Assembly: GCA_963662715.1 (NCBI GenBank)
Contig: OY759724.1
Location: forward strand, 630,001 to 662,000
DNA length: 32,000 nt
Reading direction: 5' to 3'
Source of the DNA: Candidatus Omnitrophota bacterium
GTDB lineage: Bacteria; Omnitrophota; Gorgyraeia; Zapsychrales; JANLHA01
Positions 1 to 25,761 of the stretch are shown one piece after another (position 1 is the first letter of the stretch; every line of letters begins with the position of its first letter). The position numbers and the translations under genes are program-made. The notes beneath the pieces are model-generated. The model did not search any database and was not told the origin of the DNA. It saw nothing but the letters and a program-made list of their open reading frames with translations.

Positions 1-323
1 TCATCGGTATCTTCGTATATCTCTTTCCCCCAGCGGCCGCCGCCGCCGACATTATTGACTAAAATATGTATCGTCCCCCACCTCCGGATCACCGCATCCA
101 TAACTTTGTAAACATCCGCTTCCGTTGTTACGTCGGCCTGCAGGGATAAAAAGTCGGCGCCCGTGTCCTGAAGTTCTTTCTTCATGGCAGACACCTTTTC
201 CTCTGTCCGTGAACAAACAGCGACCCGGCAACCTTCACGCGCCAAGGAAAAAGCGATCGCGCGTCCTATCCCGTGCGTCCCGCCGGATATAAAAGCTACC
301 TTATCTTTAAGCCCTAAGTCCAT
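1..323 (-). CDS. Short-chain dehydrogenase/reductase (classical SDR), N-terminal part only; the 3' end runs off the left window edge
   Basis: Not in the ORF track because it is truncated. My reverse-strand translation from ATG at 321-323 reads MDLGLKDKVAFISGGTHGIGRAIAFSLAREGCRVAVCSRTEEKVSAMKKELQ...ILVNNVGGGG. It has the GGxxGIG Rossmann motif and an NNVG motif. An AGGAA sequence sits 6 nt upstream of the ATG, and the upstream gene stops at 332. Confidence 0.8.
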   Translation of the reverse strand, partial: MDLGLKDKVAFISGGTHGIGRAIAFSLAREGCRVAVCSRTEEKVSAMKKELQDTGADFLSLQADVTTEADVYKVMDAVIRRWGTIHILVNNVGGGGRWGKEIYEDTD

Positions 324-331
324 GGAGATTC

Positions 332-1288
332 CTATGCTGTTTCCCTGTTGTTCCTGACCCAGTTCAAAACCCGTTCAGCCACATGATCCGCATCCAACCG
401 GTAATGACGATGAATGCTGTCCCTGCTGCTGGGTATTGTGCAATGGCTGTCCGGGCAGGCCAGTCTTTTCATCGGGACACCGCATCCCGCATCTGCCCTT
501 ATTTCAGCTAAAGCTGTTCCCAGCCCGCCGATCAAAGAATTTTCTTCCAGGGTCACGATCCTTTCGGCCCGCAACATCATATCAATCAAATCCGGTTCAT
601 TCAACGGTTTCACTTTGAAAACGTCGATAACCCTGACCGAAAGCCCTTCCCGGGCTAAAGATTCAGCCGCTTTAAGCGCTGTATGCACCATAAATCCGGT
701 CGAAAAGATAACGACATCCTGCCCCTCACGGACTTCGGACCAGCCTTTCTGAAGGTCATGGTTCCGGTCGTCGTAAAGCAGCGGCAGCTTCCCTTTTTCT
801 AACCGGATATACACCGGCCCGGGATGGTTGTACGCCCAGCGGACACTCGCCTCTGTTAAAACAGAATCCGTGGGATTAATGATTGTCATCCCGGGGAGCG
901 TCCGCATGACGGCGATATCATGCAGGGCATGATGGGTCGGCCCGTCGCCCCCGTACATAACGCCGGCACCTATGCCTATAATTGTCACCGGAAGGTTCAT
1001 CCCGGATAAATCCACTTTGATCTGTTCGTAACATCTTAGGGTGACAAAAGGCACAATACTGTAAATAAAAACATTCTTTCCGCCCAAGGCTAAACCGGCC
1101 GCCACACTCACCATATTCTGTTCGGCCACGCCGACATTGATATACTGCTCCGGAAGATTCTGTTTAAACCGTTCCAGACTAAAAGCGCCCATATCCGCGG
1201 TCATAAAAATAACATTCCTGTCCACCCGGGCCATCCGGAACAATTCGTCAAAGAAAGCGTCCCGGGTGTCTACGTCGGATATTTTCAT
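332..1288 (-). CDS. Transketolase-family ThDP enzyme, C-terminal subunit (pyrimidine-binding plus C-terminal domain)
   Basis: The sequence FMTADMGAFSLERF...YINVGVAEQNMVSVAAGLALGGKNVFIYSIVPF...DGPTHHALHDIAVMR is typical of the Pyr domain of split transketolases. The track ORF begins at a GTG (1306) that overlaps the upstream gene. The ATG at 1288 (MKISDVDTRDAFF) lies 4 nt after the upstream stop and is preferred. Confidence 0.85.
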   Translation of the reverse strand: MKISDVDTRDAFFDELFRMARVDRNVIFMTADMGAFSLERFKQNLPEQYINVGVAEQNMVSVAAGLALGGKNVFIYSIVPFVTLRCYEQIKVDLSGMNLPVTIIGIGAGVMYGGDGPTHHALHDIAVMRTLPGMTIINPTDSVLTEASVRWAYNHPGPVYIRLEKGKLPLLYDDRNHDLQKGWSEVREGQDVVIFSTGFMVHTALKAAESLAREGLSVRVIDVFKVKPLNEPDLIDMMLRAERIVTLEENSLIGGLGTALAEIRADAGCGVPMKRLACPDSHCTIPSSRDSIHRHYRLDADHVAERVLNWVRNNRETA

Positions 1289-1292
1289 ACAT

Positions 1293-2138
1293 TCAGTTCC
1301 GTTCACAATTCAGCAGCTCCTCAAGCTCGGTTCTGGCCTGCTCCACCTGCGCTTCTTTCGGGACCCCGTGGTGCCACTCCAGCCGGCTTTCCATAAAAGA
1401 AACACCTTTTCCTTTGACCGTATGGGCCACGATCATTAACGGTTTCCGGGAAGAACGCTGACGCACATCTCCCAAAACAGACAAAAGCTGACAGAAATCA
1501 TGTCCGTCCGCCTCCCGGACCTCCCAGCCGAAAGCGGACCACTTTTCCGCCAGCGGTTCCATCGCCGCACAGTCTTCCAGTCTGTCTGTCACACACATTT
1601 TATTATGATCAACGACAGCGATCAGATGGCTGAGATGATGTTGGGCGGCAAACATGGCCGACTCCCATACCGCCCCCTCGCAGCACTCGCCGTCTCCCAA
1701 TAAAACAAAAGTCAAAAATCCTGCCCCGTCCATCCTGGCGCTTAACGCCAGCCCGGCCCCGATCCCCAATCCGTGCCCCAGAGAACCGGTATCCGCCTCT
1801 ATCCCGGGGATGGATCTGTCAGGATGGCCTCCTAATATACAGTCCGGCTGCTGGTAACGCGACAGCTCCTCTTCCGGGAAAAAACCGCAATCCGCCAAGA
1901 TGGCATACAACGCTTCACACGAATGACCTTTACTGAGGATGAAACGGTCCCGGTCCGGCCAGGCAGGCTTTTGCGGATCAAACTTAAGGATCCCGCCGTA
2001 ATAAAGAGCCACGAGAATGTCCGTGCAGGAAAAAGAGCCGCCGATATGGCCTTTTCTGGCACGGGCTATCATCTCAAGCGTCTTGATGCGGATATTCTGG
2101 GCTTTGCGGAATAGGGGATGATTGGTCTTCTCTGTCAT
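1293..2138 (-). CDS. Transketolase-family ThDP enzyme, N-terminal (diphosphate-binding) subunit
   Basis: It has GHIGGSFSCTDIL, the SKGH motif, and the ThDP fold motif GDGECCEGAVWESAMFAAQHHLSHLIAVVDHN (GDG-X-N). At 281 aa it has the typical size of the N-terminal half of a split transketolase. Confidence 0.85.
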   Translation of the reverse strand: MTEKTNHPLFRKAQNIRIKTLEMIARARKGHIGGSFSCTDILVALYYGGILKFDPQKPAWPDRDRFILSKGHSCEALYAILADCGFFPEEELSRYQQPDCILGGHPDRSIPGIEADTGSLGHGLGIGAGLALSARMDGAGFLTFVLLGDGECCEGAVWESAMFAAQHHLSHLIAVVDHNKMCVTDRLEDCAAMEPLAEKWSAFGWEVREADGHDFCQLLSVLGDVRQRSSRKPLMIVAHTVKGKGVSFMESRLEWHHGVPKEAQVEQARTELEELLNCERN

Positions 2139-3656
2139 TCAATGAGCTCTTCTAAAAAAGGAAATCCGGACGTTTTTAATGACCCGCTGAACCACTCCTT
2201 CCAATTTTGTTGTGGTTCTCCCCTGGAAAGCATTGCGGACCATCTGCAGTATTCGCCGGGGATGGGTCAGAAGCATTAAAGCATAAAAATGACTTAAAAG
2301 CAAAAATCTCAAACTGCTGAGGGTCCGCGGGCCGAAGCGTTCAGACCAGGAGACCGCTTTACTCAAGTCGGCATACCCGAACAAGTTTAAAAAGTAATCG
2401 TCGGAAAGCGTCAGTTTCTTTTGCCGTAAGAAAGAGTCAAAAAGCTCTGATCCCGGATAAGGGATAAAAGGGAAAACATTGACTTCCTGCAACCCTTTCA
2501 CGGCTAAACGGGTCAACAGCCGATATGTTTTTAAGAAATCCTTCCACCCTTCCTCGGGCAGGCCGATGACGATATTCGTACTAAGATTCATGCCCACAGC
2601 CAATCCGTCTTCGATCAGCCGGAATATCTTCTGCGGGTCGTTCTTCTTCTTGACGCTTTTCAGGACGTTGAGCGACCCGGACTCGATCGCGAAATCCAAA
2701 TCCCGGCACCCGGCCTGATGCATCAGCCGCAGGACATCATAATCCACGGCCTCTGTCCTTAATGTCGGCAGCTGCCACGTCACATTGATTTTACGCTCTA
2801 TCAACTCCTCACACAAGCTTATTATGTTATCTTTTCTCATCACCGCCGTCAAATCCGAAAAGACAAAATTATCCGCCCCGTATTCACGGATATACGTCTC
2901 CATTTCATCAACCACGTCTTTGGCTTCCCGGGGGATCCAGGGCCGGCCCCACATATTCTTGTTTGAACAAAAGGTACATTGATAGGGGCACCCGCGGGTG
3001 GCCAGGATAGGGATTGTACGTCCGCGCCGGATATGATAGTTATAGCCGCGCGACAGATAGTGGTCCAGCGGAAGCAGGTCCCAGGCCGGCCAGGGGATGG
3101 CTCCGATATCCCTGATTCTCGGAGCCCGGGGAGTGCGCATATATCCCTCCTGTTCCGGTTTCCGGATCATCAAACTCGGCACGTCGGCAAAGTCTGCCTG
3201 CTGATCTATCGCATCCAGAAGCCGCACAATAACATCCTCTCCTTCCCCCAGGACGCAGATATCCAGTTCCGGGCAATCGTTCAAGCTGTATTCCGGCAAA
3301 GCTGTTATGTGTTCCCCCCCGGCGAAAAAAACGCTCCCCGGGAATAACCGGCGGACATGCTGAATCAAATCACGGTGAAAAGGCCAGTCCTGGGAAAACA
3401 TGCACGTAAAGCCGAAAACTTTTGAAGGGGAAAGACGGTCCTTCAGGCCCGCGAAGCTCATGCCGTATTGTATAAATCTGCCGTGGACAATCTCCGTACG
3501 GCTGATGTCTTCCCCGCACATATCGACAATATCCACGTCATGCCCCGCGGCCCGCAAAGCAGCCCCGACATAGGCGATACCGAGGTAGGGGACTAACTGG
3601 GCGCCCATAAAACCCCTGCTGCTGTAAGCAGGAGGACGGATAAGAGTCACTTTCAT
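2139..3656 (-). CDS. Radical SAM enzyme with an N-terminal B12-binding-type domain (class B rSAM, methyltransferase-like)
   Basis: The N terminus MKVTLIRPP...LGIAYVGAALRAAGHDVDIVD has the Rossmann-like pattern of a B12-binding domain. The CxxxCxxC cluster is ATRGCPYQCTFCS at aa 223-230. The gene abuts the downstream gene with no gap. Confidence 0.8.
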   Translation of the reverse strand: MKVTLIRPPAYSSRGFMGAQLVPYLGIAYVGAALRAAGHDVDIVDMCGEDISRTEIVHGRFIQYGMSFAGLKDRLSPSKVFGFTCMFSQDWPFHRDLIQHVRRLFPGSVFFAGGEHITALPEYSLNDCPELDICVLGEGEDVIVRLLDAIDQQADFADVPSLMIRKPEQEGYMRTPRAPRIRDIGAIPWPAWDLLPLDHYLSRGYNYHIRRGRTIPILATRGCPYQCTFCSNKNMWGRPWIPREAKDVVDEMETYIREYGADNFVFSDLTAVMRKDNIISLCEELIERKINVTWQLPTLRTEAVDYDVLRLMHQAGCRDLDFAIESGSLNVLKSVKKKNDPQKIFRLIEDGLAVGMNLSTNIVIGLPEEGWKDFLKTYRLLTRLAVKGLQEVNVFPFIPYPGSELFDSFLRQKKLTLSDDYFLNLFGYADLSKAVSWSERFGPRTLSSLRFLLLSHFYALMLLTHPRRILQMVRNAFQGRTTTKLEGVVQRVIKNVRISFFRRAH

Positions 3657-3663
3657 GATGAGC

Positions 3664-4704
3664 TTATACTTTCAAATCTTCCGTACTGCAACAACTAGAT
3701 CCTCTGTTTTTTCTATAGATCGGATGGCCCCACATCTGGTGGATCAGATTTTTAAGGCCGTTGTCTTTGACATTTCCGAATGTATGCGGGAAGGCCACAC
3801 AAAGCTGAATATCTCCGTAAGGGGAAATATTCAGTATGCGCCCGCTTAACGCCTGGCAGACCTTTGTCTTTCCTTTTACGGAATAGGCGCCCTCAATAAA
3901 GGCAAAAGACGGGTCCATATGTTCGATCACAAATTTTTTTTCCTGTTCCGACAACTCGATTTCTTTCTTTTTAACCCATTCTCCGGCGATGATCGGGAAA
4001 AGGATCCGGATCCCGGTAGCTTTCAGTGCCTTGGCCAAAGAGATGATCGCACTAAGCGGGCTGTCGTCATGCAAAGCGGCAAAATTTTTTATTCTGCGGC
4101 GGGTCGCATAGGTTGAAGCAATGCACGGGATCCCTTCTTCATGACACATGCGGATGCCCTCAATCGCTTTCAGATACACGCCCGGCAACCCGCGGAGGCG
4201 GTCATGCTCTTCTTCGTCCACACTGTCCAAGCTCACATTAATACAGCTGATCCCCGCCTGTTTCAAATCCAGAATCATCTGGCGGTTGAGCATCCAGGCG
4301 TTTGTGGTCAAAGAGATATACAAACCCAGTTCTTCTCCGTAACGCACCAACTCAACAATATCTTTCCGCAGAAGAGGTTCTCCTCCGAAATAATCGACCT
4401 TAGGGATACCCATAGCCACGGCCTGATCGAGAATGTGTTTAATCTCTTCTGTTTTTAACTCCCTGTGCAGATCCGCGTCACTGAAATAATTGGAAACCGA
4501 ACAGTGCTTGCACCGGCAATTACAGCGGTATGTCACGGAAAGTTCAATAAGCCAGGGGACCTTTTTCCTGAAAATATTCGTCAATACCCAGTACCGGGCC
4601 ATGATATAAGCTTTCTTCGGTGTCATGCGGCTTAAGCCGACCCGGGCATAAAGGCGTATCATCCCCAGAAAACGTTTAAAATTTCTTCCATAACTGCTCA
4701 TCAT
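3664..4704 (-). CDS. Radical SAM enzyme with a C-terminal twitch/SPASM-like Cys motif
   Basis: It has the SVTYRCNCRCKHCS cluster, a GGEPLL SAM-binding motif, and the C-terminal CQALSGRILNISPYGDIQLC, which fits CX13GX4C. A strong SD (AAGGAG) lies 3-6 nt before the ATGATG start. Confidence 0.8.
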   Translation of the reverse strand: MMSSYGRNFKRFLGMIRLYARVGLSRMTPKKAYIMARYWVLTNIFRKKVPWLIELSVTYRCNCRCKHCSVSNYFSDADLHRELKTEEIKHILDQAVAMGIPKVDYFGGEPLLRKDIVELVRYGEELGLYISLTTNAWMLNRQMILDLKQAGISCINVSLDSVDEEEHDRLRGLPGVYLKAIEGIRMCHEEGIPCIASTYATRRRIKNFAALHDDSPLSAIISLAKALKATGIRILFPIIAGEWVKKKEIELSEQEKKFVIEHMDPSFAFIEGAYSVKGKTKVCQALSGRILNISPYGDIQLCVAFPHTFGNVKDNGLKNLIHQMWGHPIYRKNRGSSCCSTEDLKV

Positions 4705-4861
4705 TTACTCCTTCTTCTGTGACCGATATTGAACTCGGATATTAAAATAAAGAGGCACCCCTCCAGAGAAACGGGCTGAGGGTTTGACGGATATTTCTTC
4801 CATCATATATAATCTCATATAAAATACAACCTTTATAGCGAAAAAGTAACTTAAAACAGGC

Positions 4862-4898
4862 AAGAAAAACCGGCAGCCCCTTTCCATGAAGTGGCTGC
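4862..4898 (-). terminator. Weak terminator-like hairpin just after the stop of the 4905-5942 gene
   Basis: On the minus strand, GCAGCC (4873-4878) pairs with GGCTGC (4893-4898) around a 14-nt loop. It is followed by CGG TTTTT CTTG. The stem is only 6 bp and the loop is large, so at best this is a partial terminator or attenuator. Confidence 0.3.
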
Positions 4899-4904
4899 GG
4901 CGCA

Positions 4905-5942
4905 TCATTTCAACTTTTTCTTAAAACGTTCAAGGACAATCCGGGTCGCATTATAAATGGATCCGACTCTTAAGCCGAATATCAAGTTCAGATCATTGCA
5001 GCAGACATTCTGACATGCCTGGCAGGGGTTCCGGCTCAAATGCTCCCAGCTCTTCTTAAATCCCACCTCCAAAAAATTACAGGGCTTATATTTATTGACA
5101 AGCACAACACACGGATAAACATCCCCGTTCGCCTCTATATGACAGCCGAAACGTTTAATATAACACGGAAAAGGCCGGTATCCTTCCGGCAACCGGTCCC
5201 AGATGATCTGCTGTTTGCTTTCCAAAGGCCAGCGCAGGTAATGACTGTATGACTCTTTGGAAAAAAAGACCGGCTCCCCTTTTTCTTTTAAAGCAATGAT
5301 TTTCTTCACAAGGCTTTTCAACTCATCATCCGGGATGCTGACGGATTTATCCGGGGAATCCTCTTCCCTTAACAGGCTGAACTGCACACGCGTCCCGAAC
5401 CTCCCGGCCAGCGATAAAAGCTCTTCAATGGATTCCGTATTGTTTTTGGTTAAAACCGTATGCAGGTGGAATTTGATGTTCTCTCTTTTAAGACATTCCA
5501 ACCCCTGCATAATCCGCTGATAAGTCCCCTGCCCCCTGTTCAGATCGTTCCTCTCTCCGATGCCGTCCAGGCTCACGGCAATGGAATCAATTTTTCTCAA
5601 AACCGGGATACGGGACGGGATCAAAAGGCCGTTTGTGCTGAGATGACACAGCAAGCCTTTGGATTTGATTTTATCAACGATCTCCGCGATATCCGTCCGT
5701 AAAAGAGCTTCTCCGCCGTTAAGGGAAATATACTTTGTGCCTAACCGGTGAAGTTCATCAATCAGCTCAAAAATTCTTTCTTTGGGTATCTCCTGGGTGT
5801 TCCGGTCGTAATATTCGGCATAACAATAAACACAGCGGATATTACAGCGGTTTGTGACGCACAGCGTGACAAAGATAGGGACTCTTCGACGCAAGAACCG
5901 CGCTTTGCCGATAGCCCACAAATAAGCGACATATTTTTTCAT
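4905..5942 (-). CDS. Radical SAM enzyme with a full SPASM-type C-terminal domain
   Basis: It has the CVTNRCNIRCVYCY cluster and NGGEALL. The C terminus carries CYIKRFGCHIEANGDVYPC (CX12GX4C) followed by CQACQNVCC. Its N-terminal region is paralogous to 3664-4704: ...RRRVPIFVTLCVTNRC against ...RKKVPWLIELSVTYRC. Confidence 0.8.
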   Translation of the reverse strand: MKKYVAYLWAIGKARFLRRRVPIFVTLCVTNRCNIRCVYCYAEYYDRNTQEIPKERIFELIDELHRLGTKYISLNGGEALLRTDIAEIVDKIKSKGLLCHLSTNGLLIPSRIPVLRKIDSIAVSLDGIGERNDLNRGQGTYQRIMQGLECLKRENIKFHLHTVLTKNNTESIEELLSLAGRFGTRVQFSLLREEDSPDKSVSIPDDELKSLVKKIIALKEKGEPVFFSKESYSHYLRWPLESKQQIIWDRLPEGYRPFPCYIKRFGCHIEANGDVYPCVVLVNKYKPCNFLEVGFKKSWEHLSRNPCQACQNVCCNDLNLIFGLRVGSIYNATRIVLERFKKKLK

Positions 5943-5955
5943 AACGGTGCAACCA

Positions 5956-7422
5956 TCATTGTTTTAAACGGCATTTCAGCATGCCGAAAAATTTTCCTAT
6001 CATATCCCCGTTCACCACGCCATCCGGGGACACCCATTCTTTTATGAGTGTCGGCCAGTGGTAACGGATAAAACCGAGGTACAATTCTTTTTGCCAGCGC
6101 GCCAAATCGTCCGGGGTGAAATCCGGGGTTCTTAAAAGCGATGAAAACAGCTCAACCCGGTTTTCATCCTCGGCCGAAGATTCGACCAGCCAGCCTTTCT
6201 CTTTGCATTCATCATAAAGTTCGGTTTTGGGATAAGGCGTAAATATCCCGACCGTAATAAGGCTCAAAGGCAGACGCGCCATAAGAGCTTTGCTTTCTTC
6301 AAAATCAGCGCGCGTTTCCCCCGGGGCCCCAACCAGGAAATAACCGATCGTCGGGATCCCGGCGTCACGGAACCAGTGAAAAACCTGTTCGATTTTTTCC
6401 ATGCTCAGCCCCTTGCGGTACACCTGGTTTCGGATGCGCTCACTGCCGGACTCAATCGCCAGGCACACGCTGGTGCACCCGGAGGCTTTCATCAGACGCA
6501 CCAATTCTTCATCGATACTTTTTATGCTGAGGCCGTTATGAAAATTATATTTCACCGGCCATTTCTGATCGATAATGCCCTGGCAGACGGCTTTGGCCCT
6601 TTTTAAATCCAGGCTGAAATTATCATCAATAAAATAAAAATGATAAACGTCAAAACGCTCCATCAGATATTTCAATTCGCTTAACACGTTCTGCGCCGAG
6701 CGCGGCCGCCATCTCCGGCCGTGGGTCAGGTACATATTACAAAAACGGCACCGGTTCGGGCAACTGCGGGAGGACAAGACCGGCAGACAGGGTGTCGGCA
6801 ATTCAAATATGCGTCTCTGGTATTTAAAGTACTCTTTCAGGTCTGCAAGATGCCAGGCCGGGAAAGGGATATCATCCAGTCTTTCATTATAAGCCTGCTT
6901 TTCTATGATGATATTCCGCTGATCCTGCCGGAAGGCGATCCCGTCGACCCGCCGGCAGGATTCCGTTAAACTTAACCCGGAGGCAAGACCGTCAATGACA
7001 TGGAGAAACGTAAGTTCGGCTTCCCCCAGGATAATGATATCAACCGCCTGGCATTGTTCAAGACAGTATTCCCATTCACTGGTGGGAAACAATCCCCCGA
7101 CAGCGACCGGAACTTCCGGCCGGGCCTGTTTGACCTGAGAGGCAATCCGGGCCACAAACCGCCAGCGCGCCGTAAAAGAACAGGTGATCCCCACAAAATC
7201 ATAGTCCTCATGTTTTAAAAAATCTTCCACATCCGCGTCCCCGAGGCCGTAACGGTAGACCCGGCCGCTTGAACGGACCGGCCCTAAAGACGCGTCATAA
7301 ACTTTGACCGTATGCCCCCCTTTTTCCAGCATGGCCGCCAGATAAAATAACGCCATGGACGGGGCCCGGGAATCAAATTCATTGCTGTGGGTATACTGGG
7401 GATAGATCAGCAGAATTTTCAA
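5956..7422 (-). CDS. Radical SAM enzyme with an N-terminal B12-binding-type domain (second class B rSAM)
   Basis: It has (M)KILLIYPQ...FYLAAMLEKGGHTVKVYD and the cluster SSRSCPNRCRFCN. The start codon is TTG at 7420-7422, preceded by a perfect AGGAGG (7430-7435) at 7-nt spacing. The next in-frame Met would delete the conserved first beta-strand. Confidence 0.8.
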   Translation of the reverse strand: MKILLIYPQYTHSNEFDSRAPSMALFYLAAMLEKGGHTVKVYDASLGPVRSSGRVYRYGLGDADVEDFLKHEDYDFVGITCSFTARWRFVARIASQVKQARPEVPVAVGGLFPTSEWEYCLEQCQAVDIIILGEAELTFLHVIDGLASGLSLTESCRRVDGIAFRQDQRNIIIEKQAYNERLDDIPFPAWHLADLKEYFKYQRRIFELPTPCLPVLSSRSCPNRCRFCNMYLTHGRRWRPRSAQNVLSELKYLMERFDVYHFYFIDDNFSLDLKRAKAVCQGIIDQKWPVKYNFHNGLSIKSIDEELVRLMKASGCTSVCLAIESGSERIRNQVYRKGLSMEKIEQVFHWFRDAGIPTIGYFLVGAPGETRADFEESKALMARLPLSLITVGIFTPYPKTELYDECKEKGWLVESSAEDENRVELFSSLLRTPDFTPDDLARWQKELYLGFIRYHWPTLIKEWVSPDGVVNGDMIGKFFGMLKCRLKQ

Positions 7423-8291
7423 AGGGCGGCCTCCTGCCGAAAAATTCCATTTTCTTCAGCATAACGGGTCATGTCGTCCCGGAGATGCAGGCGTTTGGTC
7501 GAACAATCCCAGCAGAAATAATGCCCGTTACAGCACGCCACACGGGCTTTTTCATATTTACCGCAGTCCAGACATTGAAAAGTCTCTTTCAGCAGCCGGA
7601 CACTCATGGACTTTCCGCAGGCCAGACAAAGCGTGGCATGCAAAGGACACGGTTCCAAATCCCGGTATTTCAAAAAATTCTTCACGATGAATTTCAAAGG
7701 CAGAGGCAAAGGCTGTCCGACAACTCGGGTTTTCCCCTGCCGGATTGTCTCGAGGATCAAATCACGCCGGTCCGTCAGGACCTCCGTATAAGCCTGTCCG
7801 ATAAACCGCGTATCTGTCGTATCGCTCCCTCCCACCTGCCCTAACCGGGTCTGCCGGGCCAGGCGTTTAGCCAGATAATTATAAAAATAAACGCTCCCGA
7901 TGGACGCGTTATAGACTTCGACGGCATCAAAGGGCAGCTTCCGCACTCTCCGCCCCAGTCCCAGGTGAAGGTACGGGTGGACCGCAACGGCCACGCCGCC
8001 CTGTTCATGAATCTGCTTTAATGTTTCTTCCGCACTCATAAAATCCGCGATCTTGTTTTTCAGACCCAAAGCAATGACATGCCCCGCAGATGTCCATATC
8101 TCCTGCCCCACAATGATCACAAAATCAGGAAGTCTTTCCTGCAACCACCGGGCATGCGTCAGGTTGAAAAAATTCGTTACCGCGATCCCGTCTATATTCC
8201 TGCGGGTCAATGACTCCCTTAAAAGGAATTCATTCATAAAAGTCTGCCCAAAGGACTGGGTATGAATATGTAAATCCAGCGTAAAAGACAT
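7419..8291 (-). CDS. PHP-family metal-dependent phosphoesterase fused to a C-terminal Cys-rich zinc-ribbon region
   Basis: The N terminus LDLHIHTQSF is the HxH metal motif of PHP domains, with further His/Asp positions (AVHPY, GGSDT). The C-terminal ~60 aa read CPLHATLCLACGK...CLDCGK...CCNGHYFCWDCS. An AAGGAG SD sits 5 nt upstream of the ATG. Confidence 0.7.
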   Translation of the reverse strand: MSFTLDLHIHTQSFGQTFMNEFLLRESLTRRNIDGIAVTNFFNLTHARWLQERLPDFVIIVGQEIWTSAGHVIALGLKNKIADFMSAEETLKQIHEQGGVAVAVHPYLHLGLGRRVRKLPFDAVEVYNASIGSVYFYNYLAKRLARQTRLGQVGGSDTTDTRFIGQAYTEVLTDRRDLILETIRQGKTRVVGQPLPLPLKFIVKNFLKYRDLEPCPLHATLCLACGKSMSVRLLKETFQCLDCGKYEKARVACCNGHYFCWDCSTKRLHLRDDMTRYAEENGIFRQEAAL

Positions 8292-8300
8292 ATCGTCTCC

Positions 8301-9395
8301 TTATCCGGAAGCTGCCCGCCGGCTGCGCCAGGCGATGCGGGCCATCTCGAAAACAATGCCCGGATAGTAACGGGGCGTTAACATAATCGTATTGGACATA
8401 GGCAGGCCCCAGTGACACGTACATTTTGAATCCTTCATCTTCTGCTGAAACTGCCTCATCTCTTCCGAATGAAGAACCTTTCCCAGGTCATAACCGTTCG
8501 ATCTCAACTGCCCCACAGGCTGCCATAAAGGTTCACAGGGGAAAACGGCCCCGGTCTCTCCGATAACAATCACCGATTGGCCGGCCCGGCAGGTTTTATA
8601 CATGTCTTTCGTATTTAAAACCTGTTTCAAGAAATCATTTTTAACGATCCGCAAAGCCATCGTAAAGATCGAATGAAAATCAAACACGGTTTTGGCCCGG
8701 GCCTGTGCGCGGAACCGGTCGCAGAACTGGAAATATCTTTCCCAGTTAAAAGACATGGCCTCGGCATTGGAGACGCTGCCATGCGCGACGGAAAAAACGA
8801 CCCGGTCAAATTCGCTGAAATCGTTATCCAGGATACGGAACAGATCATCCATATGATCCTGATTATAATGCGAATAAACGACACAGGCTTTTAGGCGGAG
8901 ATTCCTGTACTTTTGCTTCAAGGGGATCAAGCGCTGATATGTCTGCCGGGCCCGTTTAAAGCCGTCTTTCAGTCCGCGGATATGGTCATGGACCTCGGGC
9001 GGACCGTCCAGGGACAATTGCAAGTCAACAACCATGTTCGGGCATGCCCGGGCTGTTTTCTCCACCTGGGAAACAATGTCGTCCGGGAAATAACCGTTTG
9101 TAGGAAGGTCCACGACAACAGGGGCGCAATGGCGGTAAAGGATTTCAATAATATGATGCAGGTCCTTGCGGAGGAATGGTTCTCCCCCGGAAATCCCCAA
9201 AACATTAATAAAGGGGATACGGCCGGCGATACGCTCATATTCATCAACGGTCAGCTCATCCTTGGCCGCATTGCTGTCCATGTTCTCTTTATAAAAACAC
9301 ATTTTACACGTCGCATTACAGCGGGCCGTGACAAAAAATATCACGTAAGAAGGGAAACTTCCGGTTTTGAAAAAACGGAGGATTTTATGTGTCAC
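8301..9395 (-). CDS. Radical SAM enzyme with a SPASM/twitch-like motif
   Basis: It has the VTARCNATCKMCF cluster, SGGEPFL, and CRAGQSVIVIGETGAVFPC (CX12GX4C). The track ORF starts at a GTG at 9419. I prefer the GTG at 9393-9395 because AGGAGA (9402-9407) lies 6-7 nt upstream. Either start overlaps the end of the upstream SDR gene, by 11 or 35 nt. Confidence 0.75.
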   Translation of the reverse strand: MTHKILRFFKTGSFPSYVIFFVTARCNATCKMCFYKENMDSNAAKDELTVDEYERIAGRIPFINVLGISGGEPFLRKDLHHIIEILYRHCAPVVVDLPTNGYFPDDIVSQVEKTARACPNMVVDLQLSLDGPPEVHDHIRGLKDGFKRARQTYQRLIPLKQKYRNLRLKACVVYSHYNQDHMDDLFRILDNDFSEFDRVVFSVAHGSVSNAEAMSFNWERYFQFCDRFRAQARAKTVFDFHSIFTMALRIVKNDFLKQVLNTKDMYKTCRAGQSVIVIGETGAVFPCEPLWQPVGQLRSNGYDLGKVLHSEEMRQFQQKMKDSKCTCHWGLPMSNTIMLTPRYYPGIVFEMARIAWRSRRAASG

Positions 9396-10215
9396 GCTGA
9401 GTCTCCTGAGGGACAACACGGTAGGCGTCGGCCTTTTTAAGAAACATTTTTATCGGCAGCAGCCTGGCTAAAAACACTTTCGCGACATTCTGCCAGTCGG
9501 TCAAAACCCGGACTTTATTCTCTTTCAGCCCCTTCAATCCGATGAAGGCGACATCCTCCGGTTCATCGGCCTTGGACCATCTTTTCTGCAAGCCGTCCGT
9601 CGCCCGGAGTAAAAATTCGCTCTGCGTTCGGCCGGGATAAACGCCTGTCACATGCACGCCATACGGGGCCATTTCCTGATGCAGGGCATCGGTCAAACCA
9701 AGGATAAAATGCTTTGTCCCCGAGTAGAGAGCCGAGCCGGGAACCGTGTAAAAAGAAACCACGGACCCCACGTTAAGAACCCCACAACCCGGGCGGGTTT
9801 TCATCAGCGGCAGAAAACTCCGGCACAAATAGACGACCGCATCAATATTGACCTTAAGCATGGCTAGGGCTTTGTCTTCCGGGATCAAGGAAAAATCCCC
9901 CATATGCCCAAAAGCCGCATTGTTAATAAGGATATCCACCTGATAATGATTCTGAACACACTGACACAGTTCTTTAACTTTACCGATATCTTTCAGATCA
10001 AACAGGTATGCGTCCAGGATCGCCTTGCCTTCCTCTTTCAGTTCCGCCTTTAAAGACTCCAAAGCCTCTTCGTTCCGTCCGCAGACGATCACCCGGCTTT
10101 CCCAGCGCGCCAGAATCTTTGCCATTTCCCGTCCGATCCCGGCCGTCGCTCCGGTCATTAATACGGTTTTGCCTTGATACCATTGCTTCAAATCATCAGA
10201 AGGATTCTGATTCAT
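9385..10215 (-). CDS. Classical SDR-family oxidoreductase
   Basis: It has TGATAGIGREMA (TGxxxGIG), NNAA, and YSGTKHF (YxxxK). An AGGAGG SD sits 6 nt upstream of the ATG. Confidence 0.85.
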   Translation of the reverse strand: MNQNPSDDLKQWYQGKTVLMTGATAGIGREMAKILARWESRVIVCGRNEEALESLKAELKEEGKAILDAYLFDLKDIGKVKELCQCVQNHYQVDILINNAAFGHMGDFSLIPEDKALAMLKVNIDAVVYLCRSFLPLMKTRPGCGVLNVGSVVSFYTVPGSALYSGTKHFILGLTDALHQEMAPYGVHVTGVYPGRTQSEFLLRATDGLQKRWSKADEPEDVAFIGLKGLKENKVRVLTDWQNVAKVFLARLLPIKMFLKKADAYRVVPQETQRDT

Positions 10216-10260
10216 AATGGGCCTCCTTTAATCACTCGTCTTCCCGCCCCGGCCGCAGGC

Positions 10261-11871
10261 CTACCATTTCGTCCTGAAAACAACAGGCTGTCCCTGGTTC
10301 CGCTGGTCAGGGGTAAAAACATAACGCGGTGTCTGATTATCATAATAGTCCAGATAAAGCAATTCAATAAAACTGTACAGTTTATAAGGAGGGTCCTCCC
10401 GCCTTAAGCTGTACGGATAAAGGAAATTCCCCGGGAAATCCGGATGCACAAAGAAAGAAAAACCCGGCTCCTGCCCGTATTCTTCTATCAGGGACTCCAG
10501 GGCGATAATGAGCCTCCGGGCAGGTTCGTGCTGTTGCCGCAGATGCCGGTTCATCCGGTAAACCAGCGAACCGTTCACGGCCATTAACGCGACCAGCAGC
10601 CCCCCTGTCACCCAGCGGCCAATTTTGATAAAACGGATATTCCGCAATGCCTTAAAATCAATAAGCGCATAAAGCATAATACAAAAAAAAAGCCAAAACG
10701 TATACAGATAATAAAGCGTGCCTCCTAAGGCGAAATCCACGCCCCGGTTCTGCACTCTGTAGATGACAATGGCAAAGGTCCAGCTGATGATTAAGCTCAA
10801 GATTAAACCGGCCAGCATACCCCGTTTTTTAAGAAACCTTAAAGAGCAGGACCGGCAGAAAAAGAATGCGTAGGCGCCCGCCGCCGCCAGGCCCAGCAGG
10901 ACAGGGATATTCATAAAATCCAAGGGTTTGAAAAGCTGCTGCGGATTTTCAATGCCGGCCCGTCCGAGGGTATGCACAACAGAAAATACCCCGGGGAATA
11001 TTCCGGCATAAATCCACCACAGGATCGCTTTCAGCATAAAATATATTTTGTCGGCAAAACTGTTTCCGCTCCAGAACACATTATAATCAACCGCCTGCTG
11101 TCCCAGGGCCTGATGATTGATATAGCTGGCCAAAGCATAAAACGCCGGGGCCAGCAACACAGGAAACGCATGCCATAAACGCCGTTTATGCTTCAGGTTA
11201 CCGGCTAATAAAAACATAAAAAGACATACACTGTAAAAGCAGTTGATTTCATAAGTAAAACAGGCCAGTGTCATGCATAAAGTCATCAGCCCGATCCGCC
11301 AGAGAGCTTTCTTTTCCGAAGATGTATACCGGACCCATTGATATAGTGAAGCCAGGAGCAGCGAAAGAGACAGCATAACACTCGTGATATGATGCCAGGA
11401 AACCAGTTCATAATTCATAAACATCAGGGAAAAAAAGGCCGTGATCCAGAAGGCCCAGATGCCCGGGTGAATAAAAAACAATAAGCGGTAAAGACAGGCC
11501 GCAACAAGCAGGTGAAACAACAGGCCGGTCATCTGCCACCAGAAAAAATCATAGCCGAACCAAGCCTTTTCTGTCCCGAGAAGAAACATGGCTCCGGGCC
11601 TGAAAATGAGCCCGTCCCCCGGGGCGAAACTTCTCGACCGGGAGAAATCAAAGGACCTGATCGCCAAAGACATCCAGTCATTCTTTCCGGCCATATCCGC
11701 CAGATAAAACATATGGTCAGCCCTGGGGACATGATAAAAAGCCGGGGAATAAACCAGAAGATTACCGAGGATAATAAGGCTAAAAAGCAACACAGGGAAA
11801 GCCCCCGGAGGAATGAATTCCAGGGAAAAAGATTTCCTTTTGTCTAAAGCCCGTTGGGGTAAAAACGCCAT
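10261..11871 (-). CDS. Polytopic membrane protein, GT-C-like (PMT/ArnT/TMTC-type membrane domain) with a ~100-aa C-terminal soluble domain
   Basis: I count roughly 12 or more hydrophobic segments. The first loop and helix, ...APGDGLIFRPGAMFLLGTEKAWFGYDFFWWQMTGLLFHLLVAACLYRLL, resembles the RP...fG...H..n.llH pattern of PMT_2/DUF1736-type glycosyltransferases. This is a by-eye match only. Confidence 0.5.
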   Translation of the reverse strand: MAFLPQRALDKRKSFSLEFIPPGAFPVLLFSLIILGNLLVYSPAFYHVPRADHMFYLADMAGKNDWMSLAIRSFDFSRSRSFAPGDGLIFRPGAMFLLGTEKAWFGYDFFWWQMTGLLFHLLVAACLYRLLFFIHPGIWAFWITAFFSLMFMNYELVSWHHITSVMLSLSLLLASLYQWVRYTSSEKKALWRIGLMTLCMTLACFTYEINCFYSVCLFMFLLAGNLKHKRRLWHAFPVLLAPAFYALASYINHQALGQQAVDYNVFWSGNSFADKIYFMLKAILWWIYAGIFPGVFSVVHTLGRAGIENPQQLFKPLDFMNIPVLLGLAAAGAYAFFFCRSCSLRFLKKRGMLAGLILSLIISWTFAIVIYRVQNRGVDFALGGTLYYLYTFWLFFCIMLYALIDFKALRNIRFIKIGRWVTGGLLVALMAVNGSLVYRMNRHLRQQHEPARRLIIALESLIEEYGQEPGFSFFVHPDFPGNFLYPYSLRREDPPYKLYSFIELLYLDYYDNQTPRYVFTPDQRNQGQPVVFRTKW

Positions 11872-11902
11872 GAATTGAGCGCACCTTTCTTACATCAACA
11901 TC

Positions 11903-12883
11903 TCAGGAAGGGTTTTCTTGCCTGCGATAAGTCATGAGGAAAATCATAATATCCTGGTTTAAATGTAACCGCAGTTCTTCATCATAATACTTTTTAGGCT
12001 CCAGTCCGCCGGAGCGCATCGCCCCGGCCTGGGCATGGTCCTGCAGATAACGTGCCGTGTCGCCGAGTTCCTTCCAGCAGAGCCCCCGGTAATAATACGT
12101 ATTAATGTCGTCTGATTCAACGGCTAAAATCCTGTTAAAACAATCCACGGCCTGCTGAAAATCCCTGTTCAAAAAATGAGCCACCCCGCAGTAATACAGC
12201 AGGCCTGTACTGCGGGGGTAATTCTCCAGCCCGACCATGGCAACTCTCCGCACAACAGCATACTGTTCAAGCTGATAATAACTTTTGACCAAAGCGTAAA
12301 AAAGCCGTTCTTCGTCATACTGGGCCCGCGAAATAACTCTTTGCAGCAAATGATACGTTGTCCCGTCCCCGTTGGCCCGGAAAGTTTCCGCTGCCGTCAT
12401 GAACCTGGGGATCAGTTCATTCATGTACCCGATACTTCTGTTTAAAAACGTCACGGCTAACTGATACTGCTGAAGCTGATAATGGATCATGCCCAAGTCC
12501 CAGTATAAAGCGTAAACCGTCGGTTTTTGGGAAACGGCCCGGTTATACGCCAGAATGGCCTTATCGTATTCTTTAAGGTAATAATGGGCAAACCCCAGAG
12601 CTCCGTGGAATAACGTGTTGTCGGGAGAAATCTCAATCAACTGGGAATAATATGTGACGCCTGCGCGGAAAATCTCTTCGTCATACGGCGTCTGTTTAGC
12701 CTCAAATTTCATAAAATAAGGCTCGACGATATTCTTTTCATAATTAATGCAATTGATAAGCACCTGTTCCTTGTTTATAAAAAGGGCTGCAACAAGAAGG
12801 ACAAGACAATACGGAACGATCATGGGGACACGGGCAAACGTGTCAGATTTGAGGGCTTTTGAGATGATAAGGTTTTTTACCAT
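11903..12883 (-). CDS. Membrane-anchored tetratricopeptide-repeat (TPR) protein
   Basis: There is one N-terminal hydrophobic helix (VPMIVPYCLVLLVAALFI). It is followed by repeated ~34-aa A-x-Y/F-x-x-A units, for example ALGFAHYYLKEYDKAILAYNRAV, DLGMIHYQLQQYQLAVTFLNRSI and YYCGVAHFLNRDFQQAVDCFNRIL. Confidence 0.8.
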   Translation of the reverse strand: MVKNLIISKALKSDTFARVPMIVPYCLVLLVAALFINKEQVLINCINYEKNIVEPYFMKFEAKQTPYDEEIFRAGVTYYSQLIEISPDNTLFHGALGFAHYYLKEYDKAILAYNRAVSQKPTVYALYWDLGMIHYQLQQYQLAVTFLNRSIGYMNELIPRFMTAAETFRANGDGTTYHLLQRVISRAQYDEERLFYALVKSYYQLEQYAVVRRVAMVGLENYPRSTGLLYYCGVAHFLNRDFQQAVDCFNRILAVESDDINTYYYRGLCWKELGDTARYLQDHAQAGAMRSGGLEPKKYYDEELRLHLNQDIMIFLMTYRRQENPS

Positions 12884-13010
12884 ACATTTACCCGTTAGCG
12901 GGGGTTGAGTTGATTATCGATAAACCGTTAAATAATAATTCCTACCCCCTTCCCGACAACGTTATCCTGGGAAGGCGGTCTTGCGTTCAGCTGAAAGATT
13001 AAGTCTGCCT

Positions 13011-14084
13011 TCAAATAAAATTAATATGATGCTCGTCTAAGTCCAGGAAATCATTGATCAGAATGTTCCGCTGGTCAAAAACACAATGATGGCGGCACTC
13101 TTGTCTCGCATCAAACTCCTGAAATTTTTCACGAACATCATCCGAGAACCAGATATCTTTAAACCTCATTTTCTGCAGGTCTCCGAGCTCGCCGCTGGGG
13201 ACGTAGGCCTTATCGTGGCATAAATAGACTTTGGCATCTGCCCCTATTACCGTGACGATCTGCTGAATGGGGCAGCGTTTATAGGACCGCTGAAAAACGG
13301 TATTCAATTCAAAATCAAACTCATATTTATTAATAACTTTAAAGGAAGCGTCCTCCAAGTCCTGTTTCGCCCGCTGGATATCCCGGATCACCGATGCTTT
13401 AAACGGGGCGTGCAAGGCCTCCAGGTTCCTGTCCACCATGGCGGTCAATTTAATATGGTTCGCGCCCAAATTCTTGACAAACTGCGCCATAGGATAAACT
13501 TCAGAGATATTGTCCGGGGTGATGACAAAGTTAACGCCGAGCTCACAATCCTCCGATTTGCTGCGGGAAAAATTTTTAATATTATCACAAATCTCGAAGA
13601 ACCAGGCTTCCGGGACGCCCCGGATACGGGCATACTGCTTAGCATGACAGCTGTCCATGGATATCCGCACCCATTTTGCCCGGCTTAGCACCTCCGCATT
13701 TTTATCTTTTAATAACTGCCCGTTAGTGATCATAGACAAATCAACACCCGCTTCCAAAAGACGCCGCATGATCTCATCGATATGCTTGTACAGTAAAGGC
13801 TCCCCACCGCCGCTGAAGGTCACGGCTTTGACACCCATGGCGATAATATCGTCCGCCAGATCATTCATAACCGGACAGGACAGCTGGTCCTGAAAATTAA
13901 AACGCGTACGCAGCCCCAATTTTTTGTTGTGATAATTGCAGTAGTAGCAGTGGTGATTACAAATATTGGTGGGTTTGATGCGAATATAAACCGGCGGGGT
14001 CACTTCATTCTTACGAATAGATTCTAGTTTATCTGAATGACGAAAAATTTTCAAATAACTGTACGGATTCTGTTTTTCTGACAT
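13011..14084 (-). CDS. Radical SAM enzyme
   Basis: It has the KPTNICNHHCYYCN cluster near the N terminus and FSGGGEPLL. The C-terminal Cys residues (CPIQQ...YLC, ECRHHC) do not fit the strict SPASM spacing. Confidence 0.75.
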   Translation of the reverse strand: MSEKQNPYSYLKIFRHSDKLESIRKNEVTPPVYIRIKPTNICNHHCYYCNYHNKKLGLRTRFNFQDQLSCPVMNDLADDIIAMGVKAVTFSGGGEPLLYKHIDEIMRRLLEAGVDLSMITNGQLLKDKNAEVLSRAKWVRISMDSCHAKQYARIRGVPEAWFFEICDNIKNFSRSKSEDCELGVNFVITPDNISEVYPMAQFVKNLGANHIKLTAMVDRNLEALHAPFKASVIRDIQRAKQDLEDASFKVINKYEFDFELNTVFQRSYKRCPIQQIVTVIGADAKVYLCHDKAYVPSGELGDLQKMRFKDIWFSDDVREKFQEFDARQECRHHCVFDQRNILINDFLDLDEHHINFI

Positions 14085-14103
14085 AACAAATACGCCCTTC
14101 TTT

Positions 14104-16227: not shown

Positions 16228-16366
16228 ATCAAAGTTTCTCCTCAAGCTGAACACCTGATTCGCATTTCATGAATAATGACTCCCTTAGTCTGGGCAGCAA
16301 ACCTTACCCGTTTGCGCACTAATTGTTCCTGAAGGGCTGCGCATAATCTTCCTCATACTTAAAAGG

Positions 16367-18640: not shown

Positions 18641-18644
18641 AAAT

Positions 18645-19178
18645 TTAAGACTTTTTAATGCAACGTTCTATCATTCCGGCCAGGACTTCGGCTAAAAGGA
18701 AAAAACTCGGTTTTTGCGCAATCCGGTATTTCTCGTCGTTTAAAACAATACTTCTGGCGTGAAGTAACCGCGCGATCCGGCGTTTAAGGATGATCTTGCT
18801 ATTATAGTTCTTATATAAATGCTCCAAGCTGATGCCGGCAGGGTGATATCTGTAAATCTCCCGGATCAACCTTAAACGGATGGAGGATTCATAGGGGCCG
18901 AAGACGCATAAAATGTAAAGGAAACTCAGCAAGCCGTAAACAGCCCAGGCGACCAAAAGGTAGCCGACATCATCCATGCTGACCCGGCTCAGAATGATAT
19001 CCCGTCCCTCCCGAATAAATAAACCAACCGGGACCAGACTTACGAGAAAAAAAATACGCATCGTCCATTTAAGAACGCCGCCTTCGCCGACAAAACGGAA
19101 GGAGATAAAATGGATCAGGATAAAAATCACAAAACTGACAGCCGCTGTCATGAGAGTTGTCAGGTCCGCACTCATCAT
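18645..19178 (-). CDS. Small membrane protein with 3 N-terminal TM helices and a ~85-aa soluble, winged-helix-like tail; paralogue of 19179-19685
   Basis: The TM segments are LMTAAVSFVIFILIHFISF, MRIFFLVSLVPVGLFI and VGYLLVAWAVYGLLSFLYILCVFG. They are followed by PYESSIRLRLIREIY...GISLEHL...RRIARLL. The ATG directly abuts the upstream TAA. Confidence 0.7.
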   Translation of the reverse strand: MMSADLTTLMTAAVSFVIFILIHFISFRFVGEGGVLKWTMRIFFLVSLVPVGLFIREGRDIILSRVSMDDVGYLLVAWAVYGLLSFLYILCVFGPYESSIRLRLIREIYRYHPAGISLEHLYKNYNSKIILKRRIARLLHARSIVLNDEKYRIAQKPSFFLLAEVLAGMIERCIKKS

Positions 19179-19685
19179 TTATCCGCCCCATCCCCGGCCG
19201 CTCAATTTCTGGTAGAGTTCAAGCCACTGCGCGACACGCACTCCCGGGGCCGTTAACCAGATAAGGCCTCCCTCCTCACGGATATATTCCGTCAAGAACA
19301 AGTCGTCCAGCCTCGGGCGGATGAGCCTGTCATTATCGATGACCGCGGTTATTTCTTCAAACGTCATCCCGTCCTTTTCTTTAAGAGACATCATCAGCAG
19401 GCGGGACGGGCTTTCAACCTTGGTTCCGAAATAAAAAATGAGATAAACCGGAACAAGCAAAACATATAGGAGCAGAGCACATCCCCACAAAGGCGTTGAC
19501 CAGAAACTCTTTCCGTCCGGACCGGCTTCAACCTGAATGAACAAAAGCAGGAACAACAGCCCGCCGGCAGCAATCGCAAAGAATGATCTGATATGCAGCC
19601 GGTCTTCCTTTTGAAAGCGGCACCATATTAAATGGACAAAGATATCTGTCATAAAAACCAATGACATCGTCACAAGAGAATACAT
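19179..19685 (-). CDS. Small membrane protein with 3 N-terminal TM helices and a ~85-aa soluble tail; paralogue of 18645-19178
   Basis: It has the same architecture as its neighbour. The junction motif FGTKVESPSRLLMMSL...GMTFEEI...RPRLDDLF aligns with FGPYESSIRLRLIREI...GISLEHL...RRIARLL. A GGAG SD sits 7 nt upstream of the ATG. Confidence 0.7.
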   Translation of the reverse strand: MYSLVTMSLVFMTDIFVHLIWCRFQKEDRLHIRSFFAIAAGGLLFLLLFIQVEAGPDGKSFWSTPLWGCALLLYVLLVPVYLIFYFGTKVESPSRLLMMSLKEKDGMTFEEITAVIDNDRLIRPRLDDLFLTEYIREEGGLIWLTAPGVRVAQWLELYQKLSGRGWGG

Positions 19686-19845
19686 TGTTTATCTCCGGTC
19701 ATGAGGGAGTGAAGCAAATCTGTGTCAGGATTTTCGCAAGCAGGTTTTATGGCTCTGTGGTTCATATTCTAAGAGTTTTAACATCCGGACTTTGAGAATG
19801 AGAGGTTCGTCGGGCTCCCGGCCGGAGCCGTCCATCAAGGCCCCC

Positions 19846-20502: not shown

Positions 20503-20544
20503 AGCCAAAGGGTCAATCTTTCGTTCAGGTTAAAGGGACATAAT

Positions 20545-23718: not shown

Positions 23719-23764
23719 AAAACCTGTCTTTCCTGGTTTAACGGTCTCCCCGTATCCGGGGGGA

Positions 23765-25701: not shown

Positions 25702-25761
25702 GCGTCTATCTCGTTTCCCAGAAGACCGGAAAATTTGCCCTCCAGGCATTCGGCATTAAAA

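Follow-up and report, generated by a model that had tools for sequence, protein, structure and literature searches.

The stretch of DNA analysed here, referred to as the window, comprises 32,000 nucleotides of contig OY759724.1 from a Candidatus Omnitrophota bacterium, and it contains a block in which five of six consecutive genes encode radical S-adenosylmethionine (SAM) enzymes, hereafter rSAM enzymes, a density far above chance. The minus strand carries every gene in 1-29553 with tight spacing, and in transcription order the block and its borders read: a short-chain dehydrogenase/reductase (SDR), SPc, a PHP-family phosphoesterase, B12b, SPb, a 200-bp gap, SPa, B12a, the two halves of a split transketolase (tktN and tktC) and a further SDR. 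The order of the block genes is also kept in other genomes. B12a (2139-3656) and B12b (5956-7422) are working labels, as are SPa (3664-4704), SPb (4905-5942) and SPc (8301-9419); with SPd (13011-14084) and another rSAM gene at 28651-29553, both outside the block, the window holds seven rSAM genes in total. An earlier note on this DNA, made from the sequence alone, had described the block as mirrored paralogous pairs of B12-type and SPASM-type enzymes. Its gene content stands, with all open reading frames (ORFs) recovered at the same coordinates on the minus strand and the 200-bp gap present at 4705-4904, and the lead-in peptides that it had quoted for the SPASM-type pair are exact. The genes and features of the block are as follows.

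1-318, minus strand: SDR, N-terminal part, running past the left window edge and continuing the order tktC-SDR; translation MDLGLKDKVAFISGGTHGIGRAIA...
332-1306, minus strand: tktC, C-terminal half of the split transketolase (Pfam Transket_pyr and Transketolase_C); core
1293-2138, minus strand: tktN, ThDP-binding half of the split transketolase (Pfam Transketolase_N, 151 bits; ThDP, thiamine diphosphate); core
2139-3656, minus strand: B12a, class B-type rSAM enzyme (Pfam PF02310 and PF04055); core
3664-4704, minus strand: SPa, twitch-like rSAM enzyme (Pfam Radical_SAM and Fer4_12), always directly upstream of B12a; core
4746-4870, minus strand: what is left, frameshifted, of a gene's 3' end, inside the 200-bp gap (blastn and tblastn against related loci)
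4905-5942, minus strand: SPb, SPASM-like rSAM enzyme (Pfam Radical_SAM and Fer4_12); accessory
5956-7422, minus strand: B12b, class B-type rSAM enzyme (Pfam PF02310, 76 bits, and PF04055); accessory
7419-8291, minus strand: PHP-family metal-dependent phosphoesterase (Pfam PHP_C) with a Cys-rich C-terminal extension; accessory
8301-9419, minus strand: SPc, SPASM-domain rSAM enzyme (Pfam Radical_SAM, Fer4_12 and SPASM), with an alternative GTG start at 9395; core
9385-10215, minus strand: classical SDR oxidoreductase (Pfam adh_short, 152 bits), at the upstream end of the block

At the gene junctions, tktN begins directly past the stop codon of B12a, and the stop codon of the PHP gene overlaps the start of B12b by 4 nt. 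A promoter and terminator scan of 1-14500 returned counts equal to the shuffled expectation, and the hairpin 3' of SPb folds no better than shuffles (z-score -0.06), so that no terminator is claimed there. Rfam and tRNA scans of the window found none, including no cobalamin or SAM riboswitch.

Enzyme classes of the block

Class B rSAM enzymes are recognised by an N-terminal B12-binding Rossmann domain joined to a Radical_SAM domain, and this combination is present in both B12a and B12b (PF02310, 52.5 and 76 bits, gathering score 32.1; Radical_SAM, 69.6 and 73.6 bits). The two proteins had been described as sharing their architecture, with the cluster at about residue 220, and this is borne out: the CX3CX2C motif is C223/C227/C230 in B12a, where it is invariant across 23 orthologues, and C221/C225/C228 in B12b, and the N-terminal strand reads MKVTLIRPP and MKILLIYPQ, respectively. 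An AF2 model of B12a (pLDDT 86, pTM 0.88) has as best fold matches TsrM, QCMT (9ccb), AprD4, TokK, OxsB and CysS, with Foldseek E-values of 1e-18 to 1e-22 against TsrM, QCMT, TokK, OxsB and CysS. The earlier note had named the lack of a cobalamin-binding fold as an observation that would speak against its reading; B12a, as modelled, has that fold. The best NCBIfam score of B12a is to BchE (153 bits, cut-off 481) and that of B12b to the Sden_1168 P-methyltransferase (173 bits, cut-off 575); both proteins lie below the NCBIfam cut-offs of BchE, Sden_1168, HpnJ, ApyD, PhpK, BzaD and HpnR. The best PDB sequence match of B12b is AprD4.

The earlier assignment of the class B type holds, and that of the remaining enzymes to a SPASM/twitch type probably does as well, except that the Pfam SPASM domain (PF13186) finds no match in SPa or SPb. 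It matches SPc (24 bits, gathering score 21.5), SPd and also relatives of SPa. SPa and SPb are labelled as SPASM-type because of their conserved C-terminal cysteines and not because of a Pfam match. With the seven-Cys motif CX9-15GX4C ... CX2CX5CX3C ... C as reference, SPb has six C-terminal cysteines invariant in 26 orthologues (C260, C267, C278, C307, C310 and C314), arranged as C260-x12-G273-x4-C278 and then a shortened C307-x2-C310-x3-C314. In the SPa family the invariant cysteines are C61/C65/C68 together with C283, C302 and C339, of which C283-x13-G297-x4-C302 and C339 form a twitch-like pattern; C338 adjoins C339. The AF2 model of SPa (pLDDT 90) predicts a C-terminal hairpin region, and its best fold matches are SkfB (top), BlsE, PqqE, SuiB and MoaA. 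For both SPa and SPb the best PDB sequence match is BlsE.

Core and accessory genes in related loci

Synteny was compared across 13 related loci including the window. The core consists of SPc, SPa, B12a, the split transketolase and the SDR, while PHP, B12b and SPb are optional. SPa-B12a is found in all 13 loci except the one from Elusimicrobiota (L001-L003), in which B12a stands alone within a polysaccharide cluster. Downstream of SPa-B12a, tktN-tktC is present in 10 of the 11 loci carrying that pair, and locus L007 ends less than 150 bp from B12a. The SDR follows tktC in L004, L005, L087, L155, L156, L157 and L159, and the SDR upstream of SPc is kept in L004, L007, L087, L088, L091, L156 and L159. 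Orthologues of SPc, at 49-75% identity, occupy the same position in every locus long enough to contain it. In addition, P0057, one protein of 790 aa encoded on a contig of 2.6 kb, consists of a B12a orthologue fused to a Transketolase_N domain.

B12b is confined to the window, L004, L005, L088 and L159, and is always accompanied by SPb; SPb, found in 8 of the 13 loci, occurs without B12b in L155 and L156, and neither gene is present in L007, L087, L157, L090 and L091. PHP is found in 8 of the 12 loci covering its position (absent from L088, L090, L091 and L155), independently of B12b. The overlap of the PHP and B12b genes had suggested a pairing like that of OxsB, which works with the phosphohydrolase OxsA; it was set aside because PHP and B12b occur independently in the relatives. 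The PHP protein scores 55 bits against the NCBIfam CehA/McbA domain (cut-off 80). Its C-terminal ~70 residues are Cys-rich (CPLHATLCLACG...CLDCG...CCNGHYFCWDC) and weakly resemble the model of the metal-binding selenoprotein MbdU (E 4.5e-6), and this extension may be a zinc-ribbon or metal-binding module.

The comparison also bears on the contact between SPb and SPa. Four loci have, between the two, a gene of ~1000 aa that matches nothing in Pfam (L005 5993-8901, L088 5979-8909, L156 5799-8825 and L159 12510-15449); the copy in L005 is split in two. The gap DNA of the window is 75-79% identical to the 3' end of this gene in L005 and L156 by blastn, and in translation it shares 20 of 37 residues with the C-terminus of the L005 protein, after which the frame changes (tblastn). 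The 240-bp gap of L004, the closest relative, shows a similarity at the DNA level that is weaker. The segment at ~4746-4870 is a deletion scar and the contact of SPb with SPa is secondary, the two genes being adjacent because the ~1000-aa gene between them was deleted. The layout that had been read as mirrored pairs is thus an accident of gene order. A 67-aa ORF in the gap was considered as a candidate precursor of a ribosomally made peptide that is modified after translation (RiPP), and was rejected: the reading frame is not conserved, and its DNA is the remnant of another gene in other frames.

Relationship of the two enzyme pairs

Pairwise alignment of the supposed twins gave 27.5% identity over 418 residues for B12a and B12b (phmmer, 145 bits) and 28% over 254 residues for SPa and SPb (phmmer, 64 bits). 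Within the window the members of each pair are reciprocal best matches, a relation that inside a single window does not demonstrate duplication; all four families have orthologues at 45-80% identity in other phyla. Orthologues of B12a form more than 110 clusters at 50-79% identity, with members in Omnitrophota, Elusimicrobiota, Desulfobacterales, Firestonebacteria and Brocadiales, and there is a sister family at ~40% identity from Vicinamibacterales, Nitrospina and others; among the sampled loci, 127 class B proteins other than orthologues outscore B12b against B12a. For B12b there are ~55 orthologue clusters at 48-78% identity, and more than 60 further proteins at 31-39% identity score 246-333 bits against it, well above B12a. 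In a neighbour-joining tree of 47 class B proteins, which is distance-based and built without characterised reference sequences, B12a and B12b fall into separate deep clades with many families between them. A scan of the genome collection with the B12a alignment returned mostly distant class B relatives, with one true orthologue among the matches listed, and these relatives served as outgroups but were of no use for the synteny comparison.

For the SPASM-type pair, at least 150 representative clusters score 140 bits or more against SPa (in a library clustered at 50% identity), above SPb, and the score of SPa against the PDB entry of BlsE is 64.5 bits, the same as against SPb. For SPb there are ~80 orthologue clusters, a further 16 clusters score 123-247 bits, and the SPa family was not found among its best 120 matches. 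SPa has hundreds of relatives closer to it than the supposed twin; for B12a, B12b and SPb the number lies between dozens and more than 100. Homology between the SPa and SPb families extends along the whole protein (285 aligned columns, with the hairpin cysteines in register), but their C-terminal cysteine patterns differ, six being invariant in SPb and three in SPa. The N-terminal motifs quoted in support of the pairing recur in SPc, SPd and the rSAM protein of 28651-29553, and are features of the superfamily. As for the mirrored order of two plus two genes, it is expected by chance, by our own count, in 2 of the 6 possible orders, and the same-strand order B12-SP-SP-B12 is not the one that a tandem or inverted duplication would yield.

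Taken together, the comparisons indicate four separate families of ancient divergence, one for each 'mirrored' enzyme, and the enzymes would therefore carry out four different steps. With identities of 27-28%, motifs shared across the superfamily and many closer relatives, the description as mirrored paralogous pairs is not upheld. The idea that went with it, a duplicated two-enzyme module applying the same two-step radical chemistry twice, falls on the ground that the earlier note had itself set out, namely that the members of each pair are no closer to each other than to random members of their families.

What does stand from the earlier proposal is that B12-type and SPASM/twitch-type rSAM enzymes work as a unit. 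Four mutually distant clusters (P0363, P0364, P0384 and P0410) consist of proteins of ~850-860 aa in which a B12-binding rSAM enzyme is fused to an SPa-like rSAM enzyme, and each has two intact CX3CX2C motifs. Such fusion proteins rank second and third among the SPa relatives of the representative library, and their B12 half is slightly nearer to B12b than to B12a. Other SPa relatives (P0401 and P0405) are fused to class I SAM methyltransferases. Among the sampled loci, an SPa-like gene adjoining a class B rSAM gene recurs outside the orthologous ones, in L048, L085 and L158. That B12-type and SPa-like or twitch-type enzymes act as a coupled unit is supported because four independent clusters have fused both types into one polypeptide, and it is in keeping with B12b never occurring without SPb in the loci examined. 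The locus of one fusion protein also contains PMT_2, polysaccharide deacetylase, GT2, epimerase and further rSAM genes. At L158 8001-10592, a fusion gene is followed by another SPa-like and another B12-type rSAM gene, giving the order B12-SP-SP-B12 with unrelated family members.

A reading in which SPa-B12a and B12b-SPb are copies of one ancestral module, with the same chemistry at two positions or on two substrates, can draw on the reciprocal best matches, on the alignment of the SPa and SPb families over 285 columns and on the fusions and the constant company of B12b and SPb. We nevertheless regard it as improbable, considering the orthologues at 45-80% identity elsewhere, the many closer families and the separate deep clades, the equal nearness of SPa to BlsE and SPb, the presence of SPb alone in two loci, the unlike cysteine patterns, and a same-strand mirror that simple duplication does not produce and whose central adjacency is a deletion scar.

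Candidate role in sugar tailoring

The genes around the block point to sugar chemistry. The flanks of the related loci contain epimerase/dehydratases, a DegT aminotransferase, an RmlC-like isomerase, a GHMP kinase and a GT2 glycosyltransferase of ~240 aa, and the window additionally encodes GT2, GT9, an epimerase, two methyltransferases, tetratricopeptide repeat (TPR) proteins and large polytopic membrane proteins, one of which has a weak YfhO match. Elsewhere, a B12b-like rSAM enzyme is fused to an NDP-sugar (nucleoside diphosphate sugar) epimerase/RmlD domain (P0220). Three classes of ThDP enzyme are linked in a 2025 review to C-branching of keto-sugars, namely YerE-like enzymes, E1 alpha/beta pairs and split-gene transketolases, the branching by the last class being only proposed (PMC12247030). 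All three classes are present in the window: the split transketolase at 332-2138, an acetolactate-synthase-like gene at 21242-23026, possibly YerE-like, and E1 alpha/beta at 24667-26718. The first of these has the hallmark of the split-gene class, two adjacent genes (1293-2138 and 332-1306) in a sugar context, a class whose catalytic role is unproven even in the reference cases. The co-occurrence of the three suggests more than one branched sugar, or several branches.

We therefore consider it probable, on account of the surrounding nucleotide- and polyprenyl-sugar enzymes, the GT2 and GT-C-like transferases and the three ThDP classes, that the block is a modular, non-duplicated operon tailoring a nucleotide- or polyprenyl-phosphate-linked sugar for a cell-envelope glycan of uncultivated anaerobes. 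The hosts of the cluster are most likely relatives of Omnitrophota, Desulfobacterales and Elusimicrobiota, and its product is most likely a branched, methylated sugar. Domain content, orthology, the variation in synteny, the fusions and the deletion scar are observed; the substrate, the order of the steps and every chemical reaction are what we infer, and the order of steps is much less certain than the overall reading. BtrN and BlsE activate a sugar carbon by abstraction of a hydrogen atom. SPa, in a similar manner, would oxidise or otherwise activate a ring carbon and yield a keto-sugar without oxygen; the split transketolase would place a two-carbon hydroxyacetyl branch on that ketone, and the SDR would reduce the new branch. 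B12a would methylate or rearrange an unactivated carbon, and SPc would carry out an additional radical step. In the loci that carry them, B12b and SPb, alone or along with PHP, would add a further and different decoration, giving rise to strain-level glycan variants. Finally, GT2 would load the sugar on a lipid carrier, and the GT-C-like proteins would transfer it to the envelope.

A more specific proposal, which we advance tentatively and think rather doubtful as it stands, is that SPa, B12a and the split transketolase constitute an undescribed anaerobic route to C-branched, C-methylated sugars, with B12b-SPb-PHP as a strain-diversifying plug-in. In such a route, the twitch-type rSAM enzyme would generate the keto acceptor, hydroxyacetyl branching by the transketolase would be the first physiological case outside Streptomyces, and alkylation of the product would fall to the B12-type rSAM enzyme, in physical association with the twitch enzyme and, in some lineages, as a fusion with it.

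Several observations weigh against the sugar-tailoring operon. The synteny comparison covers few loci, which were gathered by their similarity to B12a or B12b, and the P0057 fusion, on one short contig, could be an assembly artefact. None of these rSAM families has a characterised member, and in all of them every NCBIfam match is far below the curated cut-off. The fold matches of SPa do not separate peptide-modifying from sugar-modifying rSAM enzymes. AprD4 shares the B12-binding fold and is not known to use cobalamin, so that the fold leaves the use of cobalamin by B12a and B12b, and methyl transfer, unproven. The sugar-branching role of split-gene transketolases, too, has only been proposed in the literature.

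The most serious competitor keeps the same enzyme logic and changes the destination of the product, from an envelope glycan to a diffusible secondary metabolite of aminoglycoside-, cyclitol- or nucleoside-like type. The nearest solved relatives (BlsE, AprD4, TokK and CysS) are from antibiotic pathways, antibiotic clusters of Streptomyces are the only ones for which split-gene transketolase branching has been proposed to date, and L004 has a carbamoyltransferase and an SxtJ-like gene downstream. Such a product is nonetheless unlikely, given that the GT2, GT9, the membrane protein with a weak YfhO match and TPR proteins, together with PMT_2 or YfhO in relatives, are typical of envelope glycan assembly, that the gain and loss of accessory genes among close relatives resembles surface-glycan variation, and that no resistance gene, exporter or regulator of the antibiotic-cluster type was seen in the window. 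In L004 itself, the region downstream of the cluster (19034-21519) encodes the carbamoyltransferase, the SxtJ-like protein and a DUF5989 protein, which suggests carbamoylation of the product in that lineage.

Tailoring of a membrane lipid, such as a hopanoid side chain as in hpn or an ether or branched lipid, finds some echo in the NCBIfam matches, HpnJ being second-best for B12b (165 bits) and SPa, the epimerase and GT2 matching HpnH (71 bits), HpnA and HpnB, respectively; SPa and SPb also match the GDGT-MAS structure 7tol. These scores are, however, far below the cut-offs (HpnJ 577, HpnH 225, HpnA 368 and HpnB 379 bits), the window and the flanks examined contain no squalene-hopene cyclase or lipid-synthesis gene, and the transketolase, DegT, RmlC-like and GHMP kinase neighbours point to sugars, which makes a lipid substrate very improbable. 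RiPP maturation, as in the proteusin, sactipeptide and ApyD-type systems that combine B12-type and SPASM rSAM enzymes, is hardly credible: the matches that recall it (ApyD at 137-144 bits, MftC, WgkB, StsB and PapB) are weak and far under their cut-offs, and the top rank of SkfB among the SPa fold matches is set against a block that has sugar enzymes as neighbours and lacks a protease, a RiPP recognition element (RRE) domain and an ABC exporter, and in which no conserved short ORF was found, the 67-aa gap ORF included.

Returning to the sugar-tailoring operon, the closest known systems share parts of it. Sugar-tailoring rSAM enzymes of antibiotic pathways include BtrN, NeoN and GenK, besides BlsE of blasticidin S and AprD4 of apramycin. 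The last two belong to the same superfamilies, with the same domain layouts, as the enzymes of the block, and have NDP-sugar neighbours as here, but the similarity amounts to only 51-75 bits and 17-19% structural identity, and the NCBIfam models of BlsE and AprD4 score far below their cut-offs. Unlike those systems, the present loci come from uncultivated anaerobes rather than actinomycetes, and group five to nine rSAM genes in one cluster together with envelope machinery of the GT2 and GT-C-like kinds. TsrM, QCMT/MgmA (9ccb), TokK, CysS and OxsB have the same N-terminal Rossmann domain and rSAM barrel as the B12a model, at 16-19% sequence identity, and none of them acts on a glycan precursor.

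The Arn system, with the GT2 ArnC, the deacetylase ArnD and the GT-C transferase ArnT, shares with the window a GT2 of ~240 aa, small membrane proteins and large polytopic membrane proteins; with the locus of the fusion protein it has in common PMT_2, a deacetylase, GT2 and an epimerase. In contrast to Arn, the window has no formyltransferase or aminotransferase, and the match to the ArnC model reaches 38 bits where the cut-off is 529; the Arn pathway, for its part, has no rSAM step. The ThDP-dependent C-branching systems (YerE-like; E1 alpha/beta, alpha-KADH2, e.g. KbDH; and split-gene transketolases) have deoxy-sugar flanking genes, as is the case here. Split-gene transketolases have been proposed for miharamycin and amipurimycin, and those of this kind are listed from Streptomyces only, with none characterised and no rSAM partner described (PMC12247030). 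In the window, the split transketolase lies directly downstream of the rSAM gene B12a.

The superfamilies of these enzymes are known, and each family found here is uncharacterised. A search of the literature on the combination of class B rSAM enzymes, transketolase, glycan and Omnitrophota found no description of the cluster, nor of the combination of an envelope-glycan locus that has three to nine rSAM genes and a split transketolase with the natural B12-type/twitch-type fusions. If the proposed function holds, the loci would contain several new rSAM families with glycan precursors as substrates, in phyla that are known almost entirely through metagenomes; they would provide a physiological setting for the unproven sugar branching by split-gene transketolases, and the B12-type/twitch-type fusions would offer a handle on the cooperation of two radical enzymes.

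Elsewhere in the window, the rSAM protein SPd (13011-14084) has a SPASM domain, and that of 28651-29553 has a short Radical_SAM match only. Long plus-strand ORFs lie antisense to well-supported genes at 8913-9440, 21254-22063, 25285-25782 and 30297-30989, and are most likely shadow ORFs rather than genes. A second conserved module at 14104-24631 contains two large polytopic membrane proteins (weak YfhO match), two small membrane proteins of ~170 aa, GT2, an acetolactate-synthase-like gene, a methyltransferase and an SDR. It recurs at L160 4350-20902, where a B12b-like rSAM gene (48% identity) stands alone beside it. At 29988-31991, a Glu/Lys-rich protein of 667 aa with no Pfam match contains ~2.6 copies of a 261-bp (87-aa) repeat and looks like a coiled-coil; the composition changes sharply in this region (GC 0.42, GC skew -0.3, AT skew -0.26 to -0.37), and an ORF starting at 1832 in L159 scores 192 bits against the protein.

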